64,000 bases of DNA from Clostridium sp. CAG:245 (GCA_000435175.1 FR880082.1:31476-95475); one strand, 5' to 3'; shown: positions 1 through 33,536, counted from the first letter of the stretch. The notes: generated from the sequence alone by a model not told the origin. Translations and numbers: made by a program.

Positions 1-552
1 CAAATTTTCCAACATGTCTTCATCTACTTCAGTAGTACGATACATCAGGTCCTCATCAGGGTCTGTTTCAGGTTCAAGAGTTGGCACGCTCTTTACCTTA
101 GGCCACTTGCCCCAATATTCCACATTTACTGTAGAAGTAGTGGTGAGTTTTTCAACCACATCAGAGAGATGCTTATCAACATCCTTTGACTCGAAATACG
201 GAGTAAGCAATATTATCTGAGCATTGTTTGCCTCTACGCTTTCTCTGCCTGTAGTATTCCAGCAGTCACTGATGACGTATATGTTAACATAGCCGTCGTC
301 AATAGCTTTCTGCACTTCATCATAGAGTGCAGTCTTGCCATTTTTTCCAAACCGAACAATGTCAGCAGATGTGTTATTCAAGTACTCCGAGACAGTCGGC
401 TCATAGCTAAAGTACCGCGACGAATAGGTCTCGTCAACCAATACAACTGTTGTTTTTGCCGCCGCACTTGCATTTATGCAAAATAACGCAAGTGTGGTCA
501 GGCTTATTGCAAAAGCTAGCAATGCCTTTGCTATCGTTTTTTTCAGAGTCAT
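1..552 (-). CDS. secreted or membrane-anchored protein, N-terminal part only (ORF runs off the left edge); possibly vWA-like
   Basis: Own minus-strand translation. ATG at 552 follows an AGGAGAG RBS. N-terminus MTLKKTIAKALLAFAISLTTLALFCINASAAAK looks like a signal peptide. The frame stays open to position 1, so the ORF track omits it. VLVDETYS...IYVISDCWNTTG weakly resembles vWA MIDAS strands (tentative). Confidence 0.55.
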   Translation of the reverse strand, partial: MTLKKTIAKALLAFAISLTTLALFCINASAAAKTTVVLVDETYSSRYFSYEPTVSEYLNNTSADIVRFGKNGKTALYDEVQKAIDDGYVNIYVISDCWNTTGRESVEANNAQIILLTPYFESKDVDKHLSDVVEKLTTTSTVNVEYWGKWPKVKSVPTLEPETDPDEDLMYRTTEVDEDMLENL

Positions 553-646: not shown

Positions 647-675
647 ATTATACCATTTTGCACTAATTATGTCAA
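647..675 (-). promoter_or_regulatory. sigma-70/SigA-type promoter: TTGACA, 17 nt spacer, TATAAT with TGn extension
   Basis: Minus strand reads TTGACA (675-670), a 17-nt spacer, then TGG-TATAAT (652-647), about 95 nt upstream of the ATG at 552. Confidence 0.6.
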
Positions 676-677
676 TT

Positions 678-713
678 AAAGAACAGGCATGTATTTTAAC
701 ACACCTGCTCTTT
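678..713 (-). terminator. hairpin after the six-gene operon (weak T tract)
   Basis: AAGAGCAGG ... CCTGTTCTT forms a 9-bp stem directly after the stop at 715. Only a short T run follows. Confidence 0.4.
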
Positions 714-714
714 G

Positions 715-1362
715 TTATAGAAATTTTTTCAATCTTTCTATTGTTTTTTGATGCTTTTCAATTTCTTTCTTCAAAGCAACCACTTCAAGTTGAATCAAGG
801 TTTCATCCTTAATTTGCTCATACTCTGCACTTTTTTCAGCATACAAGAATACCTCCAAAGGAACCATACCTCTGTAGTCGTCGTATTGGTTCTCATCATT
901 TCTGTTTATACGAGCATACCAGCAGTTTTCTGTTCCTTTGCATTTTCTGTCATAATATTGCTTATCACATCCAACATCTTCGTATTTTTGAAATTTTTGA
1001 ATTGCAGAATATATGACATCTTGATTCATCACACATAACATAAAATTTTTATTCTTAAAATCAAATGTTAGTGTATCAAAACAACCACATTCACCAAATA
1101 TATCAGTCTCAACTTTTAACTCATACCACCTTCCACATAATCCCGGTATAGTAGTTTTAAACTTACAATTACCCTGATTAACAATTAAAATCTGAGCACT
1201 AACATTAAATTCTGTACAGTGCAATTCTAAGGATTCATGGCTTTTTTGTGTATCATGCCAATTACGTCTTTTTTCAAAGCAATGTTTCTTTCCGCAATAC
1301 GGACACTGAAAACCCACAAAATCTAAGCTCTTAAAAACATTTTCATGTAATATTTTCATCAT
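715..1362 (-). CDS. Cys-rich zinc-ribbon (CPYCGKKH) protein with C-terminal coiled coil; unknown function
   Basis: 215-aa ORF. Its ATGA start/stop overlaps the upstream gene. N-terminal FQCPYCGKKH motif, 12 Cys in total, heptad-like tail LQLEVVALKKEIEKHQKTIERLKKFL. Confidence 0.6.
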   Translation of the reverse strand: MMKILHENVFKSLDFVGFQCPYCGKKHCFEKRRNWHDTQKSHESLELHCTEFNVSAQILIVNQGNCKFKTTIPGLCGRWYELKVETDIFGECGCFDTLTFDFKNKNFMLCVMNQDVIYSAIQKFQKYEDVGCDKQYYDRKCKGTENCWYARINRNDENQYDDYRGMVPLEVFLYAEKSAEYEQIKDETLIQLEVVALKKEIEKHQKTIERLKKFL

Positions 1363-2135
1363 TCAATCCTCTTTTGAAAATATAATGTCCTCCTTTTCTT
1401 TGGATAACATTTCTTGTGTTTTTCTTGTGGCTCGACCTTTTTTCTTGTTTTAATATCTGATTCCAGAGTTTTCTCCTGCTCAACCTGCCTTTCAGTTTCT
1501 GATAGCTTTGTTTGTTCAACCTGTTTTTCAGAATTTAATACCTCATCTTCTTGTAAATTAGACGGTAAACATTGAGTATCAACCTGTTGCATCAACCTTT
1601 CTTCTTCAGCTCTTAGTTTTTGTTCCATCTTTTGTAAGTTTTCTCTTTGTCTAATTGTAGCATGTACTGCATAATCCTTAGAGTCAAATTCCAATGCAAA
1701 CTGAATATTTGAACTTCTCTTTCTTATACAAACTGTAGAAAACTCACAGTCGCTTCGAGTACAGAGTTCTGCTTCAGCAAATGGTTGTAGTAAATAAACT
1801 CTTGGCTCTGTTTCAGACTCTTTAAAGTCATATAAATAATAGACATCTTCATAGATACATTTTTCATTTTCAAAACCAGTAGAGATTACTAAGCTAAAAT
1901 TGCATGTTATAACAATATTATAAGATGCATAAAAAGACATTTTTATAAAAACACCTTTTTCATACCATTCTTCTTCTATACTGTCACAGCTCAAATATAT
2001 TTTATATTTTTTCCCGTACTCTGAACGTTTAACTTCTCCATCCGAAAAACTAAATCTTGAATTCCAATTATGCCATTTTCCACAAATCGGGCATAAAAAT
2101 CTCTTCACATGGCAGCTTAACAATTCAGGGTTCAT
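1359..2135 (-). CDS. zinc-ribbon (CPICGKWH) protein with charged coiled-coil C-terminus; distant paralog of 715..1362
   Basis: ORF 1359..2141. The ATG at 2135 has an AGAGGA RBS 5 nt upstream, so it is the likelier start. It overlaps the 3' end of the upstream gene. Motif FLCPICGKWH; E/K/Q-rich tail. Confidence 0.6.
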   Translation of the reverse strand: MNPELLSCHVKRFLCPICGKWHNWNSRFSFSDGEVKRSEYGKKYKIYLSCDSIEEEWYEKGVFIKMSFYASYNIVITCNFSLVISTGFENEKCIYEDVYYLYDFKESETEPRVYLLQPFAEAELCTRSDCEFSTVCIRKRSSNIQFALEFDSKDYAVHATIRQRENLQKMEQKLRAEEERLMQQVDTQCLPSNLQEDEVLNSEKQVEQTKLSETERQVEQEKTLESDIKTRKKVEPQEKHKKCYPKKRRTLYFQKRIE

Positions 2136-3003
2136 ACTCATCCTCTTCTACATAGTCTTTACAAAATACATTGTCACTTGAGAAGTATCTCATAAACATA
2201 CTACCATCGGTATGACCTATGCTTGCTCTCTGAAAATTTAGACCAATTAGTGACTGTACAATAATGATTATGTTACCTCCGTTTATTTTTTTCAACATTT
2301 CCAAAGACTTGGTATCCATCGGATTTGTACCATAGTCCATTATAAAAATGAATTTTGTATATCCAGTGTAGAAACAATTTTTCATCATTATAATAGCTTG
2401 TTTAAGATGTTCATCTCTTTCCATGTTTCTATTTATTCTTTGCATCATAGCCAAACCTGACATATATTCCGTGTCAACTTCTCTACGAACAACCTGTTCA
2501 AGTTCTCTTAAAATTGCACGACTATCATAACTTCTATTATCATATTTTTGGTGTTTCTCCAATACTGACGCACCCATAGCGGCATAAACATCCGTATCCA
2601 AAGTTATTGGGATTTTGTTGAAAATAACAATATTTCTAACATGTCTCAATGCATCTTTTACCAGTTCGTCAGCTCCCGTTCCGAAAACACCGATTAAGCC
2701 ACAAGTATCATTGTCACTCTCAGAAATATTTCTCAGTTTTCTCACTAACCGCTGAAGTTTCAGTTCTTCATCAGTACGAGAATGGTACTGCCGTTCGTTT
2801 TCATATGTATCTTGTATTGTTGTTTCTACTCTTATGTTCTCATATGGTTGTACATATGTCGGTTGCTCCTCATCGCGGATTTCTATTCTAGGATTAGTAG
2901 TTCGCGGAGCACTCCTTGTTTCTCCTGGTCTAGAGTTTGCAGTTCCATTCGTTCCTGCTTTGTTCTCATAGCCCGGAATATACAAATGGCGTCTTTTGCC
3001 CAT
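2125..3003 (-). CDS. hypothetical protein: low-complexity N-terminal region plus alpha/beta-looking C-terminal domain
   Basis: ORF 2125..3036. The internal ATG at 3003 follows GAAAGGAGAA. No motif I can assign; GLIGVFGTGADELV looks like a nucleotide-binding loop (speculative). Confidence 0.55.
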   Translation of the reverse strand: MGKRRHLYIPGYENKAGTNGTANSRPGETRSAPRTTNPRIEIRDEEQPTYVQPYENIRVETTIQDTYENERQYHSRTDEELKLQRLVRKLRNISESDNDTCGLIGVFGTGADELVKDALRHVRNIVIFNKIPITLDTDVYAAMGASVLEKHQKYDNRSYDSRAILRELEQVVRREVDTEYMSGLAMMQRINRNMERDEHLKQAIIMMKNCFYTGYTKFIFIMDYGTNPMDTKSLEMLKKINGGNIIIIVQSLIGLNFQRASIGHTDGSMFMRYFSSDNVFCKDYVEEDEYEP

Positions 3004-3028
3004 AATTGTTCTCCTTTCACATTTGTGA

Positions 3029-4390
3029 TCAGGCATTGTTTAATAATAAACTTCTTGCTTTATTTTTTTGTTGTTCTTTAAAATCTCCTTTTTCCATTAT
3101 CTCATAAAACTTTGTTTTTGCTTCATCAGTATAGACGCTCAAGTTTTTCTTAACTCTTTCAAAGTCAAAATCACTCCTAGCCTCAATAATTTGAAGCATA
3201 ACACTTCGGAATACCCGTTCGAACTCAAGTTTTTCCTCCGTATCTGTTCCGGCAATATACGCATACTTTTGTCTCGCTTCTGCCTTAAAAATATTTTTTG
3301 GCATTTGCTTTAAAGCATGATTTACCGTAAAGAATTCGTCAAAAACACTTTTGGGTTCTCCATCAGGTGCAGGATAGCATGTTGCAGAAAACTCTTGCAT
3401 AATACATTCCATCCTTCTTTTCTTGGTTTTGGCTGGTATTTGTTTTGGTAATTCAGCTGCCAGAGTGCCTTCAACAGGTTCGTAGCTTGCAACTCCAATA
3501 TCATCAAAGTATCCCTTTTTAAGATATTTTACAAGTTCCTGAAATTGTAAACTTGTTTCTCCTGGAAATCCCGTAATCACCTCTGTTGAAATAACTAAGT
3601 CTGGTCTGACCGTTTTCAAAATCCGAATTTTTTCATCTACAATGTCAAAAGCAGGTCTATTCATATCCTTTAGGATTTTCTTAGATACATGCTGAATATG
3701 TAACATTATTTCTACAATATTCTCATTCTCCAAAATAAGAGTCATAACCTCTTCTGTTAATCCTGCAGGATGAAACCAACCTATAACATAATTGCAATCC
3801 GGAAATCTTGTAACAATTTTTCTCATTAACTCAGCAAAGTTTCTCTTGCCATACAAGTCAACACCATAATCAGCCGTTTCTTGTGCTCCGGTTATATAAA
3901 TAGTAGACTCATTAGCATGCATTGCTTCAATTTCATCCAAGATATCTTCCATTGGTCTGCTCTTATACATTCCTACAATTTTCGGATATACACAATAAGA
4001 ACATTTATGAAGGCATCCTGTAGAAATAATTACTTTGTTCTGTGGAATATACTGTTTAACTGTAGTCGGCTTTGCAAGTGTAACAAAAACCTCATTTAAC
4101 GGTATTACGTCAATCCCGGGAATTGCTTCCAAGTCGGAGTGGCATAATTTTTCAAGGCAACCAGTAACAATGATTTTTGCACTAGGTTTTGCATTAATTC
4201 TAACGTCTGCAATCACATCAACAGAATACATCTTATGTGGGCCGAAGGCGCATGTGAGAATAATCACTGTATCAGCAATAGTATAATCACATACGACTTC
4301 GTACCCTGTTGCCATAAGATGATTTACGATGGTGTTTGCATTAGCTATATCCATGTGCATATCATTGCAAATAACTAATGCAACTTTCAA
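3029..4390 (-). CDS. radical SAM methylthiotransferase-family enzyme (MiaB/RimO/MtaB-like) with a non-TRAM C-terminal domain
   Basis: 453 aa. TTG start 8 nt after an AGGAGG RBS. CLHKCSYC gives the CxxxCxxC radical-SAM cluster. Three N-terminal Cys (ICND, LTCAFG, VTGCLEK) match the MTTase N-domain pattern. The last ~110 aa are helical/charged rather than TRAM-like. Confidence 0.8.
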   Translation of the reverse strand: MKVALVICNDMHMDIANANTIVNHLMATGYEVVCDYTIADTVIILTCAFGPHKMYSVDVIADVRINAKPSAKIIVTGCLEKLCHSDLEAIPGIDVIPLNEVFVTLAKPTTVKQYIPQNKVIISTGCLHKCSYCVYPKIVGMYKSRPMEDILDEIEAMHANESTIYITGAQETADYGVDLYGKRNFAELMRKIVTRFPDCNYVIGWFHPAGLTEEVMTLILENENIVEIMLHIQHVSKKILKDMNRPAFDIVDEKIRILKTVRPDLVISTEVITGFPGETSLQFQELVKYLKKGYFDDIGVASYEPVEGTLAAELPKQIPAKTKKRRMECIMQEFSATCYPAPDGEPKSVFDEFFTVNHALKQMPKNIFKAEARQKYAYIAGTDTEEKLEFERVFRSVMLQIIEARSDFDFERVKKNLSVYTDEAKTKFYEIMEKGDFKEQQKNKARSLLLNNA

Positions 4391-4391
4391 T

Positions 4392-4973
4392 TTAGTAGCC
4401 TCCTACCCTCAATTTCTGACGGTTTTCTGTCTTAACTTCTGCTGCACTTTCCTTCAAGTATTCTTTGGTAAATTCTCTTTGCTCAATTTTTCCCAAAGAA
4501 TCTTCAAGTTGAAGATACTTCGCACATTTTTTTCCTTTCAACCCCTTAGGTTCAAAAGTCAGATTTCCATCTTTAGATACTGTTACCAACATATGGCCAC
4601 CATCGGTATCCTGTGGATCCCTTACCTTATAGATGTCATTACCCTTCGGAGTTACATAAAAATGTAATCTTTTTGCAACCTTTTTAAGCATCTCAACAGA
4701 ATAATTGTGCAGAAGAATGCTACCTCTCGGTCCAATAGTCCTTTCAACATACCCACCATAAAAATCAGCAGTAATGCGATAAGAACCAGTACCATTCTTT
4801 TCCAGAGCCATATCATATTGTCCAGGCAATCTGACAACATTCTCTTTCATTTCTGTTCCAAAATAATACCGACAGCTTCCATAGCTTTGCATGGTAAGCC
4901 CCATATTATTAAGAGCTTTGTTGCAAGCGTCAAGATCTCTGATTTCAGCAGAAACATGCGTAAAGTGACTCAT
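4392..4973 (-). CDS. DUF1257 (Ycf35-like) and DUF2997 fusion protein
   Basis: N-terminus MSHFTHVSAEIRDLDACNKALNNMGL...YDMALEKNGTGSYRITADFYGG resembles Ycf35/DUF1257. C-terminal MLVTVSKDGNLTFEPKGLKGKKCAKYLQLEDSLGKIEQREFTKEY resembles DUF2997. ATGA overlap with the AAA+ gene stop; GGAGGAAATAAGGA RBS. Confidence 0.7.
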   Translation of the reverse strand: MSHFTHVSAEIRDLDACNKALNNMGLTMQSYGSCRYYFGTEMKENVVRLPGQYDMALEKNGTGSYRITADFYGGYVERTIGPRGSILLHNYSVEMLKKVAKRLHFYVTPKGNDIYKVRDPQDTDGGHMLVTVSKDGNLTFEPKGLKGKKCAKYLQLEDSLGKIEQREFTKEYLKESAAEVKTENRQKLRVGGY

Positions 4974-6697
4974 TCCTTATTTCCTCCAACTCTTCTAATA
5001 ACACGGCCACCAGGCGTCTTTTTAGTTGCGGTCTTTTTTGCAGAGTTCTCATTTTGAGTACATACAGTAGAATTAGCGTTCCGAACATTTTCTTTGCTAG
5101 CCCATTCATTAAGAGCTTCTACGGTATCTTTCATAATTCCCTCAGAAGCGGGTTGGCAGCTCTTCATCTGCGAAATAATGTCATCACTCGTTAATTCCCT
5201 TGCATTATCTGCATAAGCTTCAAACATTGCTGATACGATAGCTTCTTCGATTTCAGCTCCTGTAAATCCATCGCAACTTTGTGCAATTTTCTTAACATCG
5301 AAGTTTTTTTGCTTCCTACCTTTTCTTTCAAGCTGGATTGCAACAATTTCTTCGCGTTCTTCCTGAGTAGGAAGCCCAACAAAAAAGATTTCGTCGAATC
5401 TACCTTTTCTTAAAAGTTCAGAAGGCAAAGATATAATACTATTTGCAGTTGCCACGACATAAACAGGAGATTTCTTTTCCTGCATCCATGTAAGGATGCT
5501 GGCAAACATTCTCGAAGATACGCCAGAATCATTTCTACCACTAGAACCAGCACCAGCTAATCCTTTTTCAATTTCGTCAATCCACAACACACAAGGTGCC
5601 ATAGCTTCTGCAATCTGAAGGGCTTTTCTAGTATTAGCTTCGGTGTCTCCAACATAGCTTCCGAAAAGTTTTCCTAAATCGCACTTAATCAGCGGAACAT
5701 TCCAACTGTGTGCAATTGACTTAGCAGCCAAACTTTTACCACAACCGGGAATGCCGACCAACAATACACCTTTAGGATTAGGCAATCCATATTTTTTTGC
5801 TTCATCGGAATACGCCAAAATTCTTCTTGCAGTGTATTCCTTTAAATTTTTCATGCCACCAATCTTAGAATCTTCACTATTACTCCAGAATTCCAGCAAA
5901 CCATCTTTGCAAATAGTTTGTGCTTTAACTTCTGCAATAACATCAATATCAATCTTCCTTTTCAGGAAAACAGATGTAAACAATGCACTGTCAGCCTGAG
6001 TATACGTTAAGCCGATAGAAATTTCTGCCGCCTTTTTTATGGTACTCTGCTTCTGTTCCTCGCTTTCGAAAGCCAATAGCCCTTTATTGTTTCTGTCAAT
6101 ATATCTGATTGTTTCATTGAATGAATCTACAAGATCTTCTTTAGTTGGAAGTTCGAGTTCAATAGAAATAATCGTCTCCTGCCAATCAGCCGGAACTTCA
6201 AACTTGCTGCTAATAAAAATATAGCTAACACCCAAGTTCTCAGCTTTTTCAAAAGCATCTTTTGCTGCTCTTAAGACCATCGGCTGGTTCAGATAATGAT
6301 GAAAATCGATAATACAGAAAATGTATCTTCCTTCACCGCCATTTAATTCAAGGCCTTTAACAAGAGCCTCTTGCGGATCAGTCATATCTGGATCGCGCTT
6401 TTTAAATACGTATCCATCCATAACTTCGTATTCTTCCGGATTTTTTTCTATTTCTCTTGTCAATTCGTTGTAATAATTGACACCAGTGTCATCTTCGGCT
6501 TCGTTTTCAGGTTCATCTTCTACTTCATAAGGCAATATTTCTACAATGCCTCTCGTACAGGTCCAACCAAACAGCTTAATTCCATATTCAATACTTGCTT
6601 GCAGGCACTCCTTAATCGCCCGAGTTTCTTCTGTGGTATTAATCAACACAGAAGAGTACCCGGAACCAATACAATCCCGAACAGATAATTTACTCAT
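4970..6697 (-). CDS. Ycf46-like AAA+ ATPase (classical AAA clade) with a large N-terminal domain
   Basis: Walker A GIPGCGKS, Walker B VLWIDEIEK, and second region of homology ATANSIISLPSELLRKGRFDEIFF. The ATG at 6697 follows GGAGGAAAAAAC; the track start at 6736 lacks an RBS. Confidence 0.85.
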   Translation of the reverse strand: MSKLSVRDCIGSGYSSVLINTTEETRAIKECLQASIEYGIKLFGWTCTRGIVEILPYEVEDEPENEAEDDTGVNYYNELTREIEKNPEEYEVMDGYVFKKRDPDMTDPQEALVKGLELNGGEGRYIFCIIDFHHYLNQPMVLRAAKDAFEKAENLGVSYIFISSKFEVPADWQETIISIELELPTKEDLVDSFNETIRYIDRNNKGLLAFESEEQKQSTIKKAAEISIGLTYTQADSALFTSVFLKRKIDIDVIAEVKAQTICKDGLLEFWSNSEDSKIGGMKNLKEYTARRILAYSDEAKKYGLPNPKGVLLVGIPGCGKSLAAKSIAHSWNVPLIKCDLGKLFGSYVGDTEANTRKALQIAEAMAPCVLWIDEIEKGLAGAGSSGRNDSGVSSRMFASILTWMQEKKSPVYVVATANSIISLPSELLRKGRFDEIFFVGLPTQEEREEIVAIQLERKGRKQKNFDVKKIAQSCDGFTGAEIEEAIVSAMFEAYADNARELTSDDIISQMKSCQPASEGIMKDTVEALNEWASKENVRNANSTVCTQNENSAKKTATKKTPGGRVIRRVGGNKE

Positions 6698-6779
6698 GTT
6701 TTTTCCTCCAATATTGTTTATTATTAAACTTATCATTTATGAAATAATTACCTCATAAATAACAAATTTTTACGTGAAT

Positions 6780-6808
6780 ATTATATCATTCTATCTGTGT
6801 TATGTCAA
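6780..6808 (-). promoter_or_regulatory. perfect consensus promoter (TTGACA, 17 nt spacer, TATAAT) for the six-gene operon
   Basis: Minus strand: TTGACA (6808-6803), 17-nt spacer, TATAAT (6785-6780), about 80 nt upstream of the AAA+ start. Confidence 0.6.
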
Positions 6809-6908: not shown

Positions 6909-7791
6909 CTATCCCAACGCAACATCCAAAAGCATCATTATTACAAAGCCTATACCTACACTAATAGTCACTAAATTTGATTTTTTTTCAGCTTGTGCTT
7001 CAGGTATTAGCTCAGATGATACTACATAAATCATTGCTCCTGCTGCAAATGATAGAAAATATGGTAAAATTGGCACTACAATCCTCGTTAATGCGATGGT
7101 TATTATTGCCCCAATTGGTTCTACTATTCCAGATAAAGTTCCTCCTAAGAATGACTTAAATTTACTTTTTCCAGAGCTATGAAGTGGCATTGATATAATT
7201 GCCCCTTCTGGTATATTTTGTATCGCTATTCCAATAGCTAACGCAAATGCCTCTGCGAGTGTTATTCCTGTATTTTGTGAGAATAATCCTGCAAACGCAA
7301 CTCCAACTGCCATCCCTTCCGGAATGTTATGTAGTGTTACTGCAAGCATTAGCATTGTAGTACTCTTTACTTTTTCTTTGATGGTTAATTTTTCTTTATT
7401 TTTTATTACAATTTTTTCATCATTTTCTTCTGTGGTTAATAAATTCTCGATATCATCACAAATAGCACATTCGTTTTTCTTATTATTTCTTTTTTCTATT
7501 TTTTCTGCCAGATTATTTACACCAATTAATGTTACAATTCCTATCATAAAGCCGACAGAAGCGGGTAACCACGCAGTTTTTCCTTGTGTTTCTGCCATTT
7601 CTATTGATGGAATTAGAAGTGACCATACAGAAGCGGCTATCATCACCCCTGCAGCAAATCCGAGCAATAATTTTTGTATTATTGGTTTAATTTCTTTTTT
7701 CAGTAAAAATACTAAAGCAGAACCGTAGTGTTGTTCCTATAAAAGGTACTAATAAACCAATAGCAATTTGTGTCGTACTATTAATACTCAC
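6909..7791 (-). pseudogene. zupT: ZIP-family zinc transporter ZupT, interrupted by a 1-nt frameshift near 7725
   Basis: HNIPEGMAVGVAFAG ZIP signature. A GTG start at 7791 follows AGGAGG and encodes VSINSTTQIAIGLLVPFIGTTL. One extra base then shifts the frame relative to GSALVFLLKKEIKPIIQKLLLGFAAGVM, which continues into ORF 6909..7667. Confidence 0.7.
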
Positions 7792-8045: not shown

Positions 8046-9035
8046 TTATATATTATATTTTATTACTTTTGCATCTGCGTTTTCTTCTATTCCAGTTGCT
8101 ATTACTGTTACCATTATTGCATCATGTATTCTTTCGTCTACTATTGTACCGAAGATTATGTTTGCTTCTGGGTCTAAGAATTCTTTTATGTATCCAACAG
8201 CAGTACTTACTTCGCTTAGTCCTAGGTCCATACCACCTGTAACATTTACAATTAATCCTTTTGCACCTTTTACAGATGTTTCTAGAAGTGGGCTATCCAT
8301 AGCAGCCATTGCAGCATCTAAAGCTCTTTGGTCGCCTTCAGCTACACCAACACCCATATGAGCAATTCCACTATCTCTCATTATTGTTTTTATATCTGCA
8401 AAATCTATATTTATAAATCCTGGTATTGTAATTAAGTCTGTTATACCTTGAACACCTTTTCTTAGAACACTATCAGCCTCTTGGAATGCTTGTATCATTG
8501 TTGTTCCCTTTGGCATTGCTTTTAATAAGTTGTTATTTTCTACAACTATAAGAGCATCAACATTCTTCTTCATTCTAACAATACCGTCATCGGCATTTGC
8601 TTTTCTTTTTCTTCCCTCAAATAAGAATGGCTTTGTTACAATTCCTACTGTTAAAATTCCCATTGATTTTGCTATTTCACATACAACTGGGGCAGCACCT
8701 GTTCCAGTGCCTCCACCCATACCACATGTTACAAATACCATGTCTGTATTTGCTAATGCTTTCTTTATATTTTCTTCATCTTCTCTTGCAGCCATTTCTC
8801 CTAAAACAGGGTTAGCTCCAGCGCCTAAACCTTTTGTTGTACCTTTTCCAATATGCATAACAGTTGTAGCTTTATTTTGTGCTAAAGCCTGTTCTTCTGT
8901 ATTTATCGCAATAAATTGTACATTACGTATTCCTTCATCTATCATTCTATTTACAGCGTTGTTTCCAGCACCACCAACACCAATTACTTTAATTCTTACT
9001 AAATCGTCTTCATTATCTTGTTCTGTGTATCTCAT
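8046..9035 (-). CDS. ftsZ: FtsZ-family tubulin-like GTPase lacking the C-terminal linker and tail
   Basis: [25 protein letters not shown] and NxDFAD ([10 protein letters not shown]) motifs. Only 329 aa; it ends 13 residues after the core VTVIATGI. Confidence 0.85.
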
Positions 9036-9206: not shown

Positions 9207-9860
9207 TTATAAAATATCAGTTAGCTCTGTAAATTTACGAATAGTAGCCATTATATGTTCATTCGAATTTATCTTTATATTGTTTCTATCATAGAATATC
9301 ACATTCATATTAGCATTTACAGCTCCAGATACGTCTGTTTTTAGGCTATCTCCTACCATTACACATTCAGAAAATTCATATGGTCCTTTAGCAATTTCAA
9401 ATGCTTCTTTGTTAGGCTTCATTGGAATGTTTTCTGTCATATATGTTGTTGAAAAATACTTATCTAACCCTAATCTTTTTAGTCTTTCATCTTGCGATTT
9501 TTTAAACCAATTTGAAAGAACAACTAAATCATATTTTTGTTTCAAATATTGCAATGTGTATACAACTTCATCATCAGCTTTTTCTGGTACGCACATACCT
9601 AAATAACGTATCCATATTCCAAAAAAGCTCTCTGGCAATTTATATCCTAATTCTTCTTCTATAGCTTTCATCATAGATTCTTTTGTGTATGTAAAATTTG
9701 TACCGTCTTCATAGTTGTCTACAGCATGCTGAATTTTTGCTTTAATCTCACTTGAATATGGTAAATTAAGCTCATCAAAAACATTTTTCAAGCAATCCCA
9801 GTATTCAGCTTTCCAATCTATTAATGTATTATCTATGTCAAAAATAATTCGTTTAATCAT
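9207..9860 (-). CDS. HAD-superfamily hydrolase
   Basis: DIDNTLID (DxDxT motif I), SN (motif II region) and VGDSLKTD (motif IV). Confidence 0.8.
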   Translation of the reverse strand: MIKRIIFDIDNTLIDWKAEYWDCLKNVFDELNLPYSSEIKAKIQHAVDNYEDGTNFTYTKESMMKAIEEELGYKLPESFFGIWIRYLGMCVPEKADDEVVYTLQYLKQKYDLVVLSNWFKKSQDERLKRLGLDKYFSTTYMTENIPMKPNKEAFEIAKGPYEFSECVMVGDSLKTDVSGAVNANMNVIFYDRNNIKINSNEHIMATIRKFTELTDIL

Positions 9861-10587: not shown

Positions 10588-10681
10588 TTTCATAGCATAT
10601 TTATACTAGCCTGCTAAGGGGCATTTGTATATCGTTTCATAGCATATTTACCCAATCGCCTACTAAGGGGCTGACATTATA
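10588..10681 (-). ncRNA. candidate type III antitoxin RNA: two tandem 47-nt repeats
   Basis: Plus-strand units 10588-10634 and 10635-10681 share the blocks TTTCATAGCATATTTA (16/16) and CTAAGGGGC (9/9). They sit between the promoter and the terminator. Confidence 0.65.
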
Positions 10682-10692
10682 TTTACATATTT

Positions 10693-10721
10693 ATTGTACC
10701 ATCAGACTTTTGCTAAGTCAA
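10693..10721 (-). promoter_or_regulatory. promoter of the type III TA locus (TTGACT, 17 nt spacer, TGG-TACAAT)
   Basis: Minus strand: -35 at 10721-10716 and -10 at 10698-10693. The predicted TSS lies just before repeat unit 2. Confidence 0.55.
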
Positions 10722-10778
10722 TAGTATTAATAAATATTCATTTATATTCTATGATATTTTGTAAAATTAATTCACAAT

Positions 10779-12866
10779 TTATTTTCCTGAATTTGTTTCT
10801 TTATTTTCTTCGTTATTTGTTGTATTTTCGCTATTTTCTACTGGCATGTTGCTTTCTTCTTTTTTACTGTCTTTTTTCAAGCTATCTACTACAAATATGA
10901 ATTTTGTTGTTCCTTCCGCTTCTTCGTCTTTTCCTGCAAAGCTATTGTATTCGTTTGCTAAGTCTTGTAGTTTTTCTACTCTTGTTTGTAAGTCTTTTAC
11001 GTCTCCGTTTACCATTGAAACTATTTTGTTTATTCCTTCTTTATCAAATTCAGATATTCCTTCTGCTAGTGTTTTAGCACCGTCAGATATTGTACTTGCA
11101 CCTTCTAATAATTGCTTGTTAGCACTGTTTAATTTATCACTTGATGTGTTTAATGTGCTTAATCCTGTTTTTAACTCTTTTGAACCGCTTGCAAGTGTGC
11201 TTACTCCTGTTTGTAATTTGCTTGTTCCTTGGCTTAATGTTGATGTACCATTCTTTAATTCGTTTGATCCTGCTATTAATTCTGTTGTTCCGTCTGTTAT
11301 AGCATCAAATCCTGATGAGATTTCGCTTATTCCACTCTTTATGCTTGATGTAGCTTGTGTCTTTAATGTATTTAATCCAGCTTTTACGCCTTTTTCATTA
11401 TCATTTATTGCATCTAATCCCGCTTCTTGTGCCTTTGTTGTTTGAGTAACTGCACTGTCTATTGCTGTTCCAATTTGTTTTGACATAGCTTGTTTTTCTG
11501 CATCTGATATTGATATACTTGAAAGTGCTTTTTGAATTGCAAGTTTTTCCTCTTTTGTTAATGTTTCATCTGCAAGAATTTCTTTTTGTACACTTGCCAT
11601 TTTCTTTTCCATTGTGCTATCTATTGCAGAAGATACTGCTGAGCTTACTCCTGTTTTTAATCCTTCTGATAATTTGCTGTTTGCATTTTCTATTACTTGT
11701 TCTTTTATTGTTTCTACTTCTTGGTCTTTTCCTGCTATTATTTTGTCGATTCCAACAGATAATGTTTTGCTACTTTCTTCTAATGAAGAAACAGCTTGTT
11801 CTTTTCCGGCAGATACTCCTGTTTGTAATGAATTTAATCCATCACTTAAATCACTTGCACCTCGATTTAATTTATTTGCACCGCTCTTTAGTGTGCTTAT
11901 GTTTGAATTTACAGAATCAATTCCTTCGTCTATTTTATTGTAGCTGTTTGTAGCAGTGTTTATTCCTTGATTGAAGGCTTCTAATCCATCAGCAAATTCT
12001 GTACTCTTTGAAACATATTCTTCTGTTCCGTCTTGTAAAGTCTTTGCACCCTCAACTAATTGTGTTGAAGCGGATTTTAAATCATTTATTTGGCTATAAA
12101 CTTCGTCTAATTTATCCATTGCAGAAACATCAGTATCATCAAATATTTTTGGTGTTACATATGACATTATATTTCCCATTTCAAAGTCTGTTGCTTCAAA
12201 GCTTATTTCAACCTTATTTAAATCTGGTAAATCTTCGTCTTCTAATCCTAAGCTTTCTATTAGTCCTGGGCAAGCAAGACCAACAACTACTGTCTTTTGG
12301 CCATTATCTAGAACTTTACCATTTGTAACTTCTATGTTTTTCATTTTTGTGTTATCTAGCATAGTTCCAGCCATTACAACAAATGGTACATACATTTTCT
12401 CACTCTTACCATTTATATTAACAAATCTTTCTTCTTTATTTGTATATTCTATTGTTATTTTTACATTTCCACTCTTGCCAATTAAATCATTTGGAGCAAT
12501 TTCTTCTCCGTTTAATTCATATTTAATTGTACAATCTAATGGTAATTCTCTGTCTGTATTTCCTTGATAATAAATATCATTTCCAGATGTCTTCCATTCA
12601 AGTGAAGTTCCATTTTGAGAAGCTTCTTCATCTCCATTAGTATTCTTTATGTTTAACAATGTAGACATATCTTTTAGCAATTCTGCATTGTCAGAATTCT
12701 TTAAATGCTCACTTACTATTGTTTGGTATGAGCTACCATTTGCATTTGCTTTAGTATAAACAGTCTCATCTTTGCTATATGCGAAAACTGGAACCGCATT
12801 AATTGTTCCTAATGCTAGCACCAAAGATGAAGCAATAACCTTTGACATTATTTTTTTATTATTCAT
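10779..12866 (-). CDS. secreted protein with an N-terminal beta-rich domain and a long LxxG heptad-repeat (YhgE/Pip-type) coiled region
   Basis: Signal peptide MNNKKIMSKVIASSLVLALGTINAVPVFA. Many L-x-x-G-x-x-x repeats (LKSGANKLNRGASDLSDGLNSLQTG...). Immediately downstream of the MMPL gene. Confidence 0.65.
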   Translation of the reverse strand: MNNKKIMSKVIASSLVLALGTINAVPVFAYSKDETVYTKANANGSSYQTIVSEHLKNSDNAELLKDMSTLLNIKNTNGDEEASQNGTSLEWKTSGNDIYYQGNTDRELPLDCTIKYELNGEEIAPNDLIGKSGNVKITIEYTNKEERFVNINGKSEKMYVPFVVMAGTMLDNTKMKNIEVTNGKVLDNGQKTVVVGLACPGLIESLGLEDEDLPDLNKVEISFEATDFEMGNIMSYVTPKIFDDTDVSAMDKLDEVYSQINDLKSASTQLVEGAKTLQDGTEEYVSKSTEFADGLEAFNQGINTATNSYNKIDEGIDSVNSNISTLKSGANKLNRGASDLSDGLNSLQTGVSAGKEQAVSSLEESSKTLSVGIDKIIAGKDQEVETIKEQVIENANSKLSEGLKTGVSSAVSSAIDSTMEKKMASVQKEILADETLTKEEKLAIQKALSSISISDAEKQAMSKQIGTAIDSAVTQTTKAQEAGLDAINDNEKGVKAGLNTLKTQATSSIKSGISEISSGFDAITDGTTELIAGSNELKNGTSTLSQGTSKLQTGVSTLASGSKELKTGLSTLNTSSDKLNSANKQLLEGASTISDGAKTLAEGISEFDKEGINKIVSMVNGDVKDLQTRVEKLQDLANEYNSFAGKDEEAEGTTKFIFVVDSLKKDSKKEESNMPVENSENTTNNEENKETNSGK

Positions 12867-30303: not shown

Positions 30304-32997
30304 TTATATTTGCTCTAATCTCTTTATTGTGTCTTCTAGCATTTCTTTGTATTTTTGCATTTTTTCTTTTTCTTCTTGAACCTTAGCCTCTGGAGCCTTG
30401 TTTATAAATCCAGGATTTGAAAGCATTTTTGTACTTCTTGCAACCTCTGCTTCAAGTCTTGTTTTTTCAGCCTCTAGCTTTGCCTTTTCCTCAGCTAAAT
30501 CAACTAATTCTTCTGACGGAATGAATGCTTTTATTCCGTCTGCAAGCAATGTTACAACATGTTTTGGTATGTTTGTTTCATCTTTTTCTATCTCAATCTT
30601 AGAAGCAAATCCAAGTTTTTCAATCCATGATTTAGAATTTTCTATTAATGTCTTGTATTCATCATCATCTATTACAAAAATTAATTCAGATTTCTTAGAT
30701 GGATGAACATTCATGTTTGTTCTTGTATTTCTAATTTGAATTATTATTTTTTTGATTTCTTCTAGATGATATTCTTCTTTCTCAAACTCATATTCTTCGC
30801 AATATGTTGGCCAAGCAGAAATCATTATGCTTTCATCGTTTGTATATAGCTCATCATATATTTTTTCTGTTATGAATGGCATGATTGGGTGTAATAATTT
30901 TAATATATCTCCCAATACCTTGTTTAGAACTTTTTGAGCTGTTATTCTTGATTCTACTGCTTTTTCGTCTGTATTTTCTTGGTTGTATAGACGAGATTTT
31001 ACGATTTCAATATACCAATCGCAGAATTCATTCCATGTGAAATCATATATTTTCTGAGCATATACTCCCATGTCGAAATTATCTAGATTTGCTGTAGCTT
31101 CTTTTATTAAAGTATTTAATTTAGATAAAATCCACTTATCTTCATATTCAAGTTTTGAAACATCTATGCTCATTATTGATGATGATACATTTTTTCCTCC
31201 GTCCCCAGATTGTATTCCATTTATATTCATTAGAACGAATTTTGATGCGTTCCATAGTTTGTTTGCAAAGTTTGAAGCTGATTCTAGTTTTTCTGGCATG
31301 TATCTTATGTCATTTCCTGGTGTTATTCCCATTATTAATGATAGACGTAAGGCGTCTGTTCCATATTTGTCTATTATTTCTAATGGATCTATTCCGTTTC
31401 CAAGACTCTTAGACATTTTTCTGCCTTGAGCATCTCTTACAATTCCATGTATTAATACGTCTTTAAATGGAACTTCTCCTGTGTGTTCTATTCCTGAGAA
31501 CATCATTCTTATTACCCAGAATAATATTATGTCATATCCTGTTACTAGTGTTGAAGTTGGATAGAAGTATTTGAAGTCTTCTGTTTGTTCTGGCCAGCCA
31601 AGTGTTGAGAATGGCCATAATGCAGAGCTGAACCAAGTATCTAATGTATCTTCATCCTGATGTAGATGTGTGCTTCCACATTTATCGCATTTTGCTGGCA
31701 TTTCTTTTCCAACCATTATTTCACCACAGTCATCACAGTAATATGCAGGTATTCTATGTCCCCACCATAATTGTCTTGATATGCACCAATCTTTGATGTT
31801 TTCTAGCCAGTTGAAATATGTTTTTTCAAATCTTTCTGGTATGAATCTTGTTTTTCCTGTTTTTACGGCTTCAATTGCTGGTTTTGCAAGTGGCTCCATT
31901 TTTACAAACCATTGTTTTGAAATCATTGGCTCTATTGTTTGATGGCATCTATAGCATTTTCCTACATCATGTGTGTAGTCTTCTATTTTTATTAATGCAC
32001 CAATTTCTTTCAATTTTTCTACAATACGTTTTCTTGCTTCATATATATCTAATCCTGCAAATTCAGGAACTATATCATTCATTATTCCATTTTCATCAAA
32101 TACTTTTATCATTTCTAGATTATTATCTAGTCCTGCTTGATAATCGTTTACGTCATGTGCAGGAGTAAGCTTTACTGCACCTGTTCCGAACTCTGTCTCA
32201 ACGAAATCTGCTGCAATTATTGGAATTTCTCTTCCTACTATTGGAAGCATAACTGTCTTTCCAATGTAAGCCTTATATCTTTCATCATTTGGATTTACTG
32301 CAACACCAGTGTCTCCAAGCATTGTTTCTGGTCTTGTTGTGGCAACTATTAAATATTTTCCTTCTTCTCCTTTTATTGGATATTTAATATGCCACAAATG
32401 AGTTGGTTCTTGCTCGTATTCAACTTCTGAATCTGAAATTGATGTATGACAAGTTGGGCACCAATTTATCATTCTTTCGCCTCTGTATATTAAACCTTTA
32501 TTATATAAATTGATAAATACAGTTTGAACAGCGTTAGAAAGTCCTTCGTCTAGAGTAAATCTTTCTCTTGACCAGTCGCAAGAACTTCCAAGCTTTCTGA
32601 TTTGCTTTGTAATTATTCCTCCGTACTCCTTTTTCCAATCCCAAGCTCTTTTTAAGAATTCTTCTCTACCTAAGTCTTCCTTAGTAATTCCTTCTTCTTT
32701 TAATTTAGCAACAATCTTAGCCTCTGTTGCAATAGAAGCATGGTCTGTTCCTGGAACCCAAAGAGCATTATATCCAGCCATTCTCTTATATCTAATTAAT
32801 ATATCTTGCAAAGTCTCATCTAAAGCATGTCCCATGTGTAATCTACCAGTAATGTTTGGTGGTGGAATTACTATTGTATATGGCTTTTTAGACTTATCAT
32901 TGCTAGGTTTAAAATAGCCTTTCTTCTCCCAATTTTCATAAATTTCATCTTCAAAATCTTTTGGATTAAATTTTCCTTCCAATTCGTGTTTACTCAT
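30304..32997 (-). CDS. valS: valyl-tRNA synthetase
   Basis: PPPNITGRLHMGH (HIGH), KMSKS (RKMSKSLGN) and a C-terminal coiled coil. 897 aa. Confidence 0.97.
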   Translation of the reverse strand: MSKHELEGKFNPKDFEDEIYENWEKKGYFKPSNDKSKKPYTIVIPPPNITGRLHMGHALDETLQDILIRYKRMAGYNALWVPGTDHASIATEAKIVAKLKEEGITKEDLGREEFLKRAWDWKKEYGGIITKQIRKLGSSCDWSRERFTLDEGLSNAVQTVFINLYNKGLIYRGERMINWCPTCHTSISDSEVEYEQEPTHLWHIKYPIKGEEGKYLIVATTRPETMLGDTGVAVNPNDERYKAYIGKTVMLPIVGREIPIIAADFVETEFGTGAVKLTPAHDVNDYQAGLDNNLEMIKVFDENGIMNDIVPEFAGLDIYEARKRIVEKLKEIGALIKIEDYTHDVGKCYRCHQTIEPMISKQWFVKMEPLAKPAIEAVKTGKTRFIPERFEKTYFNWLENIKDWCISRQLWWGHRIPAYYCDDCGEIMVGKEMPAKCDKCGSTHLHQDEDTLDTWFSSALWPFSTLGWPEQTEDFKYFYPTSTLVTGYDIILFWVIRMMFSGIEHTGEVPFKDVLIHGIVRDAQGRKMSKSLGNGIDPLEIIDKYGTDALRLSLIMGITPGNDIRYMPEKLESASNFANKLWNASKFVLMNINGIQSGDGGKNVSSSIMSIDVSKLEYEDKWILSKLNTLIKEATANLDNFDMGVYAQKIYDFTWNEFCDWYIEIVKSRLYNQENTDEKAVESRITAQKVLNKVLGDILKLLHPIMPFITEKIYDELYTNDESIMISAWPTYCEEYEFEKEEYHLEEIKKIIIQIRNTRTNMNVHPSKKSELIFVIDDDEYKTLIENSKSWIEKLGFASKIEIEKDETNIPKHVVTLLADGIKAFIPSEELVDLAEEKAKLEAEKTRLEAEVARSTKMLSNPGFINKAPEAKVQEEKEKMQKYKEMLEDTIKRLEQI

Positions 32998-33054: not shown

Positions 33055-33310
33055 TAAAACAAAAAATTGCCACTTAACCTAAATTTAGTTAAGGGCAAGA
33101 ATATTTCTCGCGGTACCACCTTATTTGTATACTTTCTATAAAATATACATCTCATTTGTTTTGTAACGTAAACTACACGGATATATTTACTATTATTTCT
33201 ATATATCAGCTCCCAAGCTACATTCAGTTTAACTTTCTATAAGAAGATCTCAGCATTTTTCTTCTTTTCTCTGGATAGATGTTCCAAACTTACTCCTCTT
33301 GTTCTTTGCT
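33055..33310 (-). promoter_or_regulatory. T-box leader (valine specifier) with terminator/antiterminator
   Basis: The minus strand contains GGTGGTACCGCG (33120-33109), an AGAGA box, a candidate GUU specifier (33233-33231, followed by A), and the terminator TTGCCCTTAAC...GTTAAGTGGCAATTTTTT (33099-33061). Confidence 0.8.
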
Positions 33311-33536
33311 TTTAATTATTATGTTACTATAATAACATATTTTATACAGAAAAATCAATAGAATTAAATAAATTCCATTGATTTTATTAGTTTCCTTATA
33401 TATTATTCCTTTATAAATTTTTTTATTTTCTTTTCATCTTTTCCTTCGTAATTTCGATTTTTTCTTCCATGATATTCCTCCTTAAAAATGTGAAACATTT
33501 CTAGCTTTTTTTGCTAATTTTGTTTCACATTTTATT

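Follow-up and report, generated by a model that had tools for sequence, protein, structure and literature searches.

We analyzed a six-gene operon in a stretch of 64,000 nucleotides from Clostridium sp. CAG:245 (GCA_000435175.1 FR880082.1:31476-95475), hereafter the window, counting positions from its first letter. The operon encodes a Ycf46-like AAA+ ATPase, a DUF1257-DUF2997 fusion protein, a radical S-adenosylmethionine (radical-SAM) methylthiotransferase (MTTase) and three accessory proteins, namely the orphan unk292 and the cysteine-rich ZnR1 and ZnR2. The best explanation is that it belongs, as a divergent case, to a family, widespread and undescribed, that combines an AAA+ protein, DUF1257 and DUF2997 with a radical-SAM enzyme, and that the variable co-encoded proteins (unk292 and ZnR1 in the window) are clients or partners whose terminal peptide copies the C-terminal tail of the ATPase. 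Tentatively, and with rather less than even confidence, we read the operon as an addressed client-processing machine in which this peptide, or tag, docks clients, the AAA+ protein remodels them and the MTTase modifies protein. We observed conservation of the genes and their domain content, a tag specific to operon genes, co-variation of tag and ATPase tail, and mimicry of the tail in a sister subfamily. The parts of the operon are members of known superfamilies, and the whole system fits no known kind.

Conserved core of the operon

In a scan with one genome per species, the MTTase family occurred in ~28 metagenome-assembled genomes (MAGs), all of them Clostridia of human, ruminant or mouse gut, and nearly all carried the AAA+, DUF fusion and MTTase genes together. 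Homologs of unk292, the fourth conserved gene of this clade, stood beside the MTTase gene in 17 other loci (phmmer). The conservation of neighborhood that the initial annotation had proposed as a check was thus found for the triad and, for the most part, for the fourth gene. In the assembly collection, 2995 blocks list the exact MTTase sequence, always in the same context of FtsZ, Zip transporter, operon, secreted 344-amino-acid (aa) protein, FAD enzyme and MnmA. In the chromosome of this very common, uncultured human-gut Clostridium, the locus is fixed. The other accessory genes vary by locus and encode coiled-coil proteins, small helical proteins, a 430-aa family and LRR_5 arrays; apart from LRR_5, these varying proteins had no Pfam match.

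By sequence, the AAA+ protein belongs to the classic unfoldase clade. It matched Pfam AAA (4e-31) plus AAA_lid_3, its closest solved structures were the D2 domains of Cdc48/p97 (E 3e-55), and the Walker A (GIPGCGKS) and Walker B (VLWIDEIEK) motifs, the pore loop (SYVGDTE) and LLRKGRFDE all read as intact. The profile of the clade's AAA+ proteins matched cyanobacterial and other Ycf46-like proteins at ~1e-150 over positions 5–500, nearly full length, and the N-terminal half of the protein is that of Ycf46. It also matched phrog_8638 (5.6e-125). A scan seeded with the AAA+ alignment recovered at least 587 stretches encoding relatives, from many phyla, of which 80 loci were kept. DUF1257 and/or DUF2997 lay beside the AAA+ gene in 41 of these 80, confirming that the association recurs, as had been proposed. 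After the DUFs, one of the most recurrent neighbors in the kept loci was a ~190-aa Fer4_12 plus Radical_SAM protein, which resembled NrdG/glycyl-radical activases (101–122 bits vs a cut-off of 126) and was present in Firmicutes, Bacteroidota, Chloroflexi and archaea. The radical-SAM partner is a RimO-derived MTTase lacking the TRAM domain in the window and an NrdG-like activase in a sister subfamily.

Within the fusion protein of the window, DUF2997 passed the Pfam cut-off (7e-10, 39 bits vs 24.1) and DUF1257 fell below it (0.0055, 17.3 bits vs 22.2). At the level of the family, many members have precomputed PF06868 matches, and the fusion-family profile recovered stand-alone DUF1257 genes at ~1e-18. 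An AlphaFold2 (AF2) model built with 115 homologs had an alpha+beta fold, with a predicted local distance difference test score (pLDDT) of 82.9 and a predicted template modeling score (pTM) of 0.76; no solved relative of the fusion was found in the PDB by sequence or by fold (Foldseek). The DUF1257 N-terminus MSHF was invariant in 115/115 aligned proteins. No fused member of the MTTase clade lacks one particular Cys of DUF2997, and the stand-alone DUF2997 proteins inspected show it too; its absence from the invariant positions of the larger alignment comes solely from the DUF1257-only sequences included there. Iron-sulfur (Fe-S) binding by the DUF proteins was considered and rejected because too few Cys are conserved.

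The MTTase matched Pfam UPF0004 (5e-9) and Radical_SAM (1.6e-16). Its auxiliary-cluster Cys 8, 47 and 78, in ICND, TCAF and TGC contexts, are at least 90% conserved in the family, and Cys 126, 130 and 133 of the CxxxCxxC motif are invariant. Among NCBIfam models, RimO (TIGR01125) scored 204 bits vs a cut-off of 357, the MiaB/RimO family (TIGR00089) 197.4 vs 251, MtaB 143 and MiaB 129, every one of them under its curated cut-off. Against the PDB, the MTTase profile matched RimO (4jc0, 6e-55) ahead of MiaB (5e-27). By these comparisons, the enzyme is RimO-derived, with RimO its closest relative ahead of MiaB and MtaB. The initial annotation had noted an apparent replacement of the TRAM domain, and this was borne out: Pfam found no TRAM domain in the MTTase, the alignment to RimO stopped at column 333, and an all-alpha C-terminal domain (Table 1) takes its place. 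AF2 modeled this domain as eight helices (pLDDT 90.7), Foldseek found no PDB match at E < 1, and an exhaustive HMMER search over 1.84 billion representatives returned 20 proteins, all members or fragments of this MTTase family. This substitute for TRAM was invented within a small clade and is private to it.

Weaker matches to the MTTase family lie 6–10 kb upstream of the operon in several relatives (L016 232..1650, L022 2413..3828 and L020 84..1497). The open reading frames (ORFs) of L016 and L022 are full length (~470 aa) and, read by eye, have a MiaB-like N-terminus. Because relatives carry these separate MiaB-like ORFs upstream, the operon MTTase looks like an extra paralog and not the housekeeping enzyme.

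The accessory proteins unk292, ZnR1 and ZnR2 had no match at cut-off in Pfam, NCBIfam, PADLOC or PHROGs. A database search for homologs of unk292 returned only relatives of at least 79% identity. ZnR1 has a CPxCGK knuckle, three later Cys and a coiled coil, and its only ortholog was in a relative, L037 (E 1.5e-36); ZnR2 is a weak relative of ZnR1 with its own L037 ortholog (5e-14). ZnR1 and ZnR2 are lineage-specific accessories, present in this species and L037 only, and not part of the core. The initial annotation had called them two zinc-ribbon paralogs, and both terms are plausible but putative. What the two proteins have in common is limited to three Cys that follow an F-x-C-P-x-C-x-K knuckle, together with a coiled coil at the C-terminus, and their BLASTP alignment (E 0.004) covers 20 aa, the CPxCGK segment. 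One CPxC knuckle plus a C-x4/8-C-x5-C group is kept in four sequences. Zinc-ribbon Pfam models matched only below threshold (14.7 bits vs 28.6).

A terminal peptide shared by the ATPase and its neighbors

A short R-x-I/V-x-F-like peptide recurs directly after the initiator Met of accessory proteins, for example as MAKKRQIIFPS, MIRRKIIFSS, MKIQRVIRFK, MPRQIIPIG and MAEKQRIIRKES. Each locus has one to five such tagged proteins. After the tag these proteins have an acidic or polar stretch of low complexity that leads into a folded domain, and they measure 90–470 aa. We scored it with a leave-one-locus-out position-specific scoring matrix (PSSM), built without the locus under test. Twenty-nine of 168 operon-adjacent genes reached a score of at least 10, vs 2 of 343 flank genes, and both of the latter encoded HAD hydrolases with a MIKRIIFDID motif of their own; in sequence, the tag shows a resemblance to HAD motif I. 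A HAD-family hydrolase in the window, with the start MIKRIIFDIDNTL, was the only strong false positive of the PSSM. When whole proteins were scanned, the matches lay at termini (25 of them N-terminal), at the C-terminus of ZnR1 and at the C-termini of AAA+ proteins.

The AAA+ tails of all 29 clade members examined (29/29) carry the tag motif. Moreover, the variant found in a tail is that of the lineage's own tag, with RVIRF in the tail paired with RVIRF in the tag, AARIKRAS with RIKR, and RRRIIPV with PRQIIP. The mean tail-tag score was 13.5 within a locus vs 8.7 across loci (permutation p = 5e-5, uncorrected for shared ancestry). Read most economically, tail and tags would both bind one receptor site that co-evolves with them. 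As a general trait of Ycf46-like loci the tag was rejected, since it showed no enrichment outside the MTTase clade (6/497 vs 5/793).

The window species and L037 share the tag variant KRR-x-(L/I)-Y-(I/F). In unk292, which consists of an N-terminal tag, a low-complexity linker and an alpha/beta-looking C-terminal domain, the protein starts MGKRRHLYIPGYEN, and the L037 ortholog has MARRRQIYFEQ at the equivalent position. In ZnR1 the tag is C-terminal, and the L037 ortholog terminates SKRNIIFMKEDSDNE, with a PSSM score of 12.4. Among the 61 ORFs of the window, a loose terminal regular expression flagged only unk292, ZnR1 and one signal peptide. We infer the tags of the window from position, L037 orthology and the shared KRR-x-LY-I/F string rather than from statistics.

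Several further observations concern termini. LRR_5 (BspA-like) arrays of up to seven proteins without signal peptides occur in L014 (9188..17056) and L031-L033, and each LRR_5 protein of the L014 subclade has an N-terminal ...(R/K)I(K/R)(I/D)... strand, which from its sequence may be that lineage's own form of the tag. Fused DUF proteins of the MTTase clade terminate ...(K/R)(L/V)(R/K)(V/L)GGY, and GG is frequent in AAA+ tails too. As an idea only, the ...RVGGY and ...GGNKE tails may admit a ubiquitin-like reading; a candidate glycyl-radical reading of RGG tails is touched by the finding that their Gly is not conserved in client tails.

Tail mimicry also occurs outside the MTTase clade. Many Ycf46-like AAA+ proteins have conserved tails, such as ...RMEF, ...RKLEL and ...RGGRTLDF. 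When one such protein was used as the seed of a second scan, a large subfamily emerged that terminates RGGRT(I/V/L)D(F/I), with members in Melainabacteria, Bacillus, Paenibacillus, Neobacillus, Romboutsia, C. botulinum ATCC 25763, Actinomycetota, Tenacibaculum and methanogens. An NrdG-like gene lay within 7 kb in 28 of 59 loci of this subfamily, and 28 of 35 loci with the RGGRT tail had at least one co-oriented neighbor terminating G-R-x-(I/V)-D-(F/Y/L). Such ends were found in 41 of 351 nearby ORFs vs 1 of 184 distant ones (Fisher p = 2.8e-7). The N-termini of the tail-bearing neighbors inspected are hydrophobic and membrane-like, and a ComEA-like HhH domain is present in several of these proteins. 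A compact five-gene set in C. botulinum ATCC 25763 (L177 6314..10414) encodes DUF2997, a ComEA-like-HhH membrane protein terminating GRRVDF, the NrdG-like radical-SAM protein, the AAA+ protein (RGGRTIDF) and a DUF1257-like protein whose N-terminus, judged by eye, is hydrophobic and anchor-like. The sister system is also present in L132, L136 and others, and neither NCBIfam nor PADLOC has a name for these loci. In L132, a protein with the end GRGRIIDF (10644..11510) matches PADLOC BnzA (Bunzi) over its N-terminal 85 aa (E 1e-7).

Two independent subfamilies thus follow the same logic, with an AAA+/DUF core, a radical-SAM enzyme and neighbors showing a copy of the ATPase tail. The tails of the window (GGRVI...) and of L037 (GRTINFE...) look like an extended RGGRTIDF. 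Beyond loci with a radical-SAM gene we found no tail mimicry, cyanobacterial loci having none, and the NPFI-K type of tail, though beside NrdG-like genes, had no mimics among its neighbors.

Proposed mechanism and rival explanations

On the reading that we favor, one receptor site, located on the N-domain of the AAA+ protein or on DUF1257/DUF2997, would take both tag and AAA+ tail, and clients would thereby be brought to the motor. AAA+ and DUF proteins are the receptor candidates as the common denominators of tagged loci. The AAA+ protein would engage the client by its tagged terminus and the disordered linker next to it, and unfold or remodel it; the features relevant to this step (Walker A/B, YVG pore loop and Arg finger) are intact. 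The MTTase may then methylthiolate the client at some residue, or else a residue within the tag or the tail. A protein substrate is favored because the MTTase descends from the protein-modifying RimO and has lost the RNA-binding TRAM domain. There is precedent by analogy: AAA+ unfoldases such as ClpX and the proteasome engage terminal tags beside disordered segments, and shared docking peptides are known for ClpX (ssrA and the SspB XB tail), Vps4 (MIM tails) and p97.

Several points weigh against this reading. The tags of the window are degenerate: with the PSSM of the relatives, the ZnR1 end scores 5.6, the AAA+ tail 4.2 and unk292 nothing, on a scale where 12% of control genes reach 7. ZnR2 lacks a clear tag, and shared ancestry was left in the co-variation test. 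The MTTase C-domain was considered as a receptor resembling the RiPP recognition element (RRE; RiPP, ribosomally synthesized and post-translationally modified peptide) and rejected, being all-alpha and without a relative, and because a subclade with a ~370-aa MTTase, which ends before this distal domain, keeps its tags. One relative (L015) has the MTTase alone, with the second auxiliary-cluster Cys lost, and in many Ycf46-like loci both a radical-SAM gene and tagged neighbors are absent. Docking, unfolding, a protein substrate and methylthiolation are all steps that we infer, and RNA, on which MiaB and MtaB act, could be the substrate instead.

That last possibility, developed into an explanation of the whole operon, has the MTTase modifying RNA or DNA and the tagged proteins acting as nucleic-acid binders that bring the substrate, namely the ComEA-like HhH proteins in the sister subfamily and possibly the Cys-rich proteins in the window. 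Most MiaB/RimO-family enzymes act on tRNA, tail-bearing clients of NrdG-type loci do carry ComEA-like HhH domains, and CPxC-type knuckles often bind nucleic acids. We nevertheless think it improbable, because the RNA-binding TRAM is exactly the domain that was lost, the closest relative is the protein-modifying RimO and not MiaB or MtaB, relatives have separate canonical MiaB-like genes (L016 and L022), and unk292 and most other tagged proteins lack a nucleic-acid-binding signature. About equally improbable is a role in radical-SAM maintenance, with AAA+ and DUF proteins serving as activase or chaperone or supplying electrons or Fe-S, for example to rebuild the sacrificial auxiliary cluster of the MTTase, and the tagged proteins secondary. 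The pairing of one AAA+/DUF core with two unrelated radical-SAM families and the one conserved DUF2997 Cys would suit it, as would the DUF2997-DUF1257(ycf35)-ferredoxin fed7 cluster that cyanobacteria retain (PMC4284462) and the habitat pattern in which red-algal plastids keep or lose ycf34, ycf35 and ycf46 together, a pattern that the authors link to iron (PMC5940233). It leaves the tags, the tail co-variation and the tail-bearing membrane proteins unexplained, however; radical-SAM genes are missing from the vicinity of about half of the Ycf46-like loci, and the conserved Cys/His of the DUF proteins are too few for a cluster of their own.

A role in conflict or anti-phage defense is unlikely, if less so than the two preceding alternatives. 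Here the AAA+ protein would be a sensor or motor, the radical-SAM enzyme would make a toxic or protective modification, and the accessories would be diversifying sensors or effectors. Turnover among the accessories is indeed rapid, with arrays of paralogs (seven LRR_5 in L014, five tagged genes in L018); sister loci adjoin Hsp70-like, WD40, SbcCD-like and STAND-like genes, and L071 adjoins an IS3-like transposase ORF and a recombinase fragment (both by eye). The AAA domain resembles IetA (E 4e-30), one tail-bearing protein has the weak N-terminal BnzA match, and the operon is the GC-richest stretch of the window. Against this, PADLOC matched only generic AAA or viperin-like radical-SAM proteins, relatives included; there is no nuclease, protease, TIR, pore or other recognizable effector; and the operon, fixed between housekeeping genes in a prevalent species, has a consensus sigma-70 promoter and may be called constitutively promoted. 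No integrase or phage genes lie nearby and there were no phage-database matches. The island or defense context that the initial annotation had suggested is weak, the locus being fixed between FtsZ/Zip and housekeeping genes with no integrase or phage genes. The defense explanation concerns role, is compatible with the tag mechanism, and is neither supported nor excluded. Two other candidates were set aside. Phage origin was rejected, because tblastn of the DUF protein against the phage database gave nothing and the MTTase only RimO-like matches; PHROG matches of operon proteins are generic family matches. A sporulation link, raised by CotJ and SpoIIID neighbors in L012 and L014, was judged to be synteny of relatives, the window promoter being of sigma-70 type.

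The statement in the initial annotation that no named system has this composition stood up to database comparison. PADLOC recognized only the AAA domain of the AAA+ protein, matching IetA (E 4e-30), TRIP13 and weakly mad8, and had no match for the five other operon proteins; NCBIfam and Pfam had nothing for four of the six proteins, and neither the PDB nor phage databases supplied a name. In the open-access literature, we found no description of this operon composition or of the tail-mimicry logic, no mechanism for DUF1257, DUF2997 or Ycf46, and nothing relevant that joins radical SAM, AAA+ ATPase, anti-phage and methylthiotransferase. The closest individual parallels each depart from the operon in several respects. 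RimO is the beta-methylthiotransferase of Asp88 in ribosomal protein S12; the operon MTTase shares its UPF0004 domain with three auxiliary-cluster Cys and its radical-SAM core with CxxxCxxC, and has it as best NCBIfam and PDB match, but scores below cut-offs, has a private all-alpha domain instead of TRAM, and lies inside an AAA+/DUF operon. Cyanobacterial Ycf46/Ycf35/DUF2997 loci have an AAA+ protein homologous over its whole length, an adjacent DUF1257 and a conserved AAA+ tail (e.g., ...YQRMEF), but DUF1257 and DUF2997 are separate genes and there is no radical-SAM gene or tagged neighbor. Ycf46 is known only as a KaiC-interacting ATPase encoded in an operon induced by stress and the stringent response (10.1101/2025.07.21.665879). 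The NrdG-type sister loci have the same AAA+/DUF core with a radical-SAM enzyme and neighbors that copy the AAA+ tail; they differ in the enzyme, which is 190 aa and glycyl-radical-activase-like, and in the clients, which are ComEA-like-HhH membrane proteins with C-terminal tags.

More distant likenesses are of logic or of single domains. ClpX with ssrA and the SspB XB tail, Vps4 MIT/MIM with ESCRT-III, p97 with its tail and cofactor motifs, and the HbYX tails of the proteasome all offer, by analogy, a terminal peptide that several proteins share and that leads them to one AAA+ machine, with the ATPase tail itself a docking element, but they have no sequence relation to the operon, which lacks a peptidase or ESCRT partner and includes a radical-SAM enzyme in the module. 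Iet (IetA-IetS) resembles it in the AAA domain only, whereas the operon has no IetS protease, its AAA+ protein scores 94 bits against NCBIfam NF042959 (IetA) where the cut-off is 510, and its N-domain and partners differ. RiPP radical-SAM maturases with an RRE likewise pair a radical-SAM enzyme with several co-encoded substrates that share a recognition peptide; here, in contrast, the tagged proteins are folded and 90–470 aa long and not short precursors, no SPASM or RRE is present, and the tag is also on the ATPase.

It is doubtful, though conceivable, that the operon and its NrdG-type sisters represent a new class of protein processing, in which a Ycf46-type AAA+ unfoldase with universal DUF cofactors presents terminally tagged clients to a radical-SAM enzyme for post-translational modification. 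To our knowledge, protein methylthiolation has so far been found only on ribosomal protein S12. If the proposal were true, it would add a second kind of protein methylthiolation after that of RimO on S12 and give a first mechanistic handle on Ycf46 and Ycf35, decades-long orphans of cyanobacteria and plastids. An AAA+/DUF core that recruits radical-SAM enzymes, combined with addressing by tail copies, would turn families of unknown function into a testable machine, and sister systems have cultured carriers in Paenibacillus, Romboutsia faecis and C. botulinum ATCC 25763.

Operon architecture and genomic setting

Table 1. Positions of operon genes, peptides, signals and other features in the window
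Feature	Position	Strand	Remarks
AAA+ gene	4970..6697	-	575 aa, also in metagenome gene calls; GGAGG 7 nt 5' of ATG
DUF1257-DUF2997 fusion gene	4392..4973	-	193 aa
MTTase gene	3029..4390	-	453 aa
unk292 gene	2125..3003	-	292 aa
ZnR1 gene	1359..2141 (or 2135)	-	258-260 aa
ZnR2 gene	715..1362	-	215 aa
AAA+ C-terminal tail GGRVIRRVGGNKE	4973..5011	-	R-x-I/V-x motif; PSSM score 4.2
C-terminal segment of DUF1257-DUF2997 fusion	4395..4430	-
All-alpha MTTase C-terminal domain	3032..3439	-	residues 318-453 (136 aa); replaces TRAM
unk292 N-terminal address peptide KRRHLYIPGY (putative)	2968..2997	-	degenerate form of clade motif
ZnR1 C-terminal address peptide KKRRTLYFQKRIE (putative)	1362..1400	-	same KRR-x-LY-I/F string as unk292 N-terminus
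Operon promoter TTGACA-17-TATAAT	6808..6780	-	TG-extended; scan 12/12 matches; sigma-70-type
Terminator-like hairpin closing operon	678..713	-	RNAfold: 15-bp stem, -22 kcal/mol; then UUUAAUU
Second promoter TTGACA-17-TATAAT	647..675	-	perfect match
344-aa signal-peptide protein	1..552	-	runs off left window end
Zip-family zinc transporter	6909..7667	-
FtsZ homolog	8046..9035	-	329 aa
HAD-family hydrolase	9207..9860	-	false positive of tag PSSM
ORF with N-terminus resembling valyl-tRNA synthetase	30304..32997	-	897 aa
T-box leader	33088..33315	-	Rfam RF00230, 114.7 bits

The description of six co-oriented, tightly coupled genes in the initial annotation was accurate, all six ORFs lying on the minus strand at the positions given there, and reading of the sequence confirmed its account of the junctions. 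ATGA overlaps join the AAA+ and DUF genes (4970-4973) and the ZnR1 and ZnR2 genes (1359-1362). At the DUF/MTTase junction (4390-4394), TAA and TTG are separated by a single A, with AGGAGG upstream, and the unk292 and ZnR1 genes overlap by 11 or 17 nt (2125-2141). Between the MTTase and unk292 genes, use of the ATG at 3003 would leave a gap of 25 nt with the ribosome-binding site AAAGGAG. A perfect promoter before the operon and a hairpin after it had also been reported, and both were recovered by our promoter scan and RNAfold (Table 1).

The operon had been described as about 10% richer in GC than its surroundings. The excess is real, as no other 6.1-kb stretch of the window exceeds 32.6% GC and the operon is the highest, yet with 35.7% vs 30.4% in the remaining window it amounts to +5.3 points, about half of the earlier figure. 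The remainder of the window is an ordinary low-GC Firmicute chromosome with FtsZ, a Zip transporter, fatty-acid synthesis genes and a valyl-tRNA synthetase (ValRS) behind a T-box; one strand carries 53 of the 61 ORFs, no integrase or phage gene was found near the operon and no tRNA gene in the window.

Directly past the operon terminator, the second perfect promoter drives the 344-aa signal-peptide protein. The full sequence of this protein was taken from L001 (13839-14873); it is kept downstream of the operon in the species and has no tag. On the other side, the Zip-family zinc transporter adjoins the AAA+ gene. A Zip transporter also lies beside the AAA+ gene, on the opposite strand, in the distant relative L013 (3080..3658; MTTase identity 47%). 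Synteny could account for this neighborhood, as could a link through metal to the Cys-rich proteins. At 329 aa the FtsZ homolog is short and stops soon after FtsZ_C, so that the usual C-terminal linker and tail appear reduced. The T-box leader, the sole Rfam match in the window, stands directly 5' of the 897-aa ORF whose N-terminus resembles valyl-tRNA synthetase.

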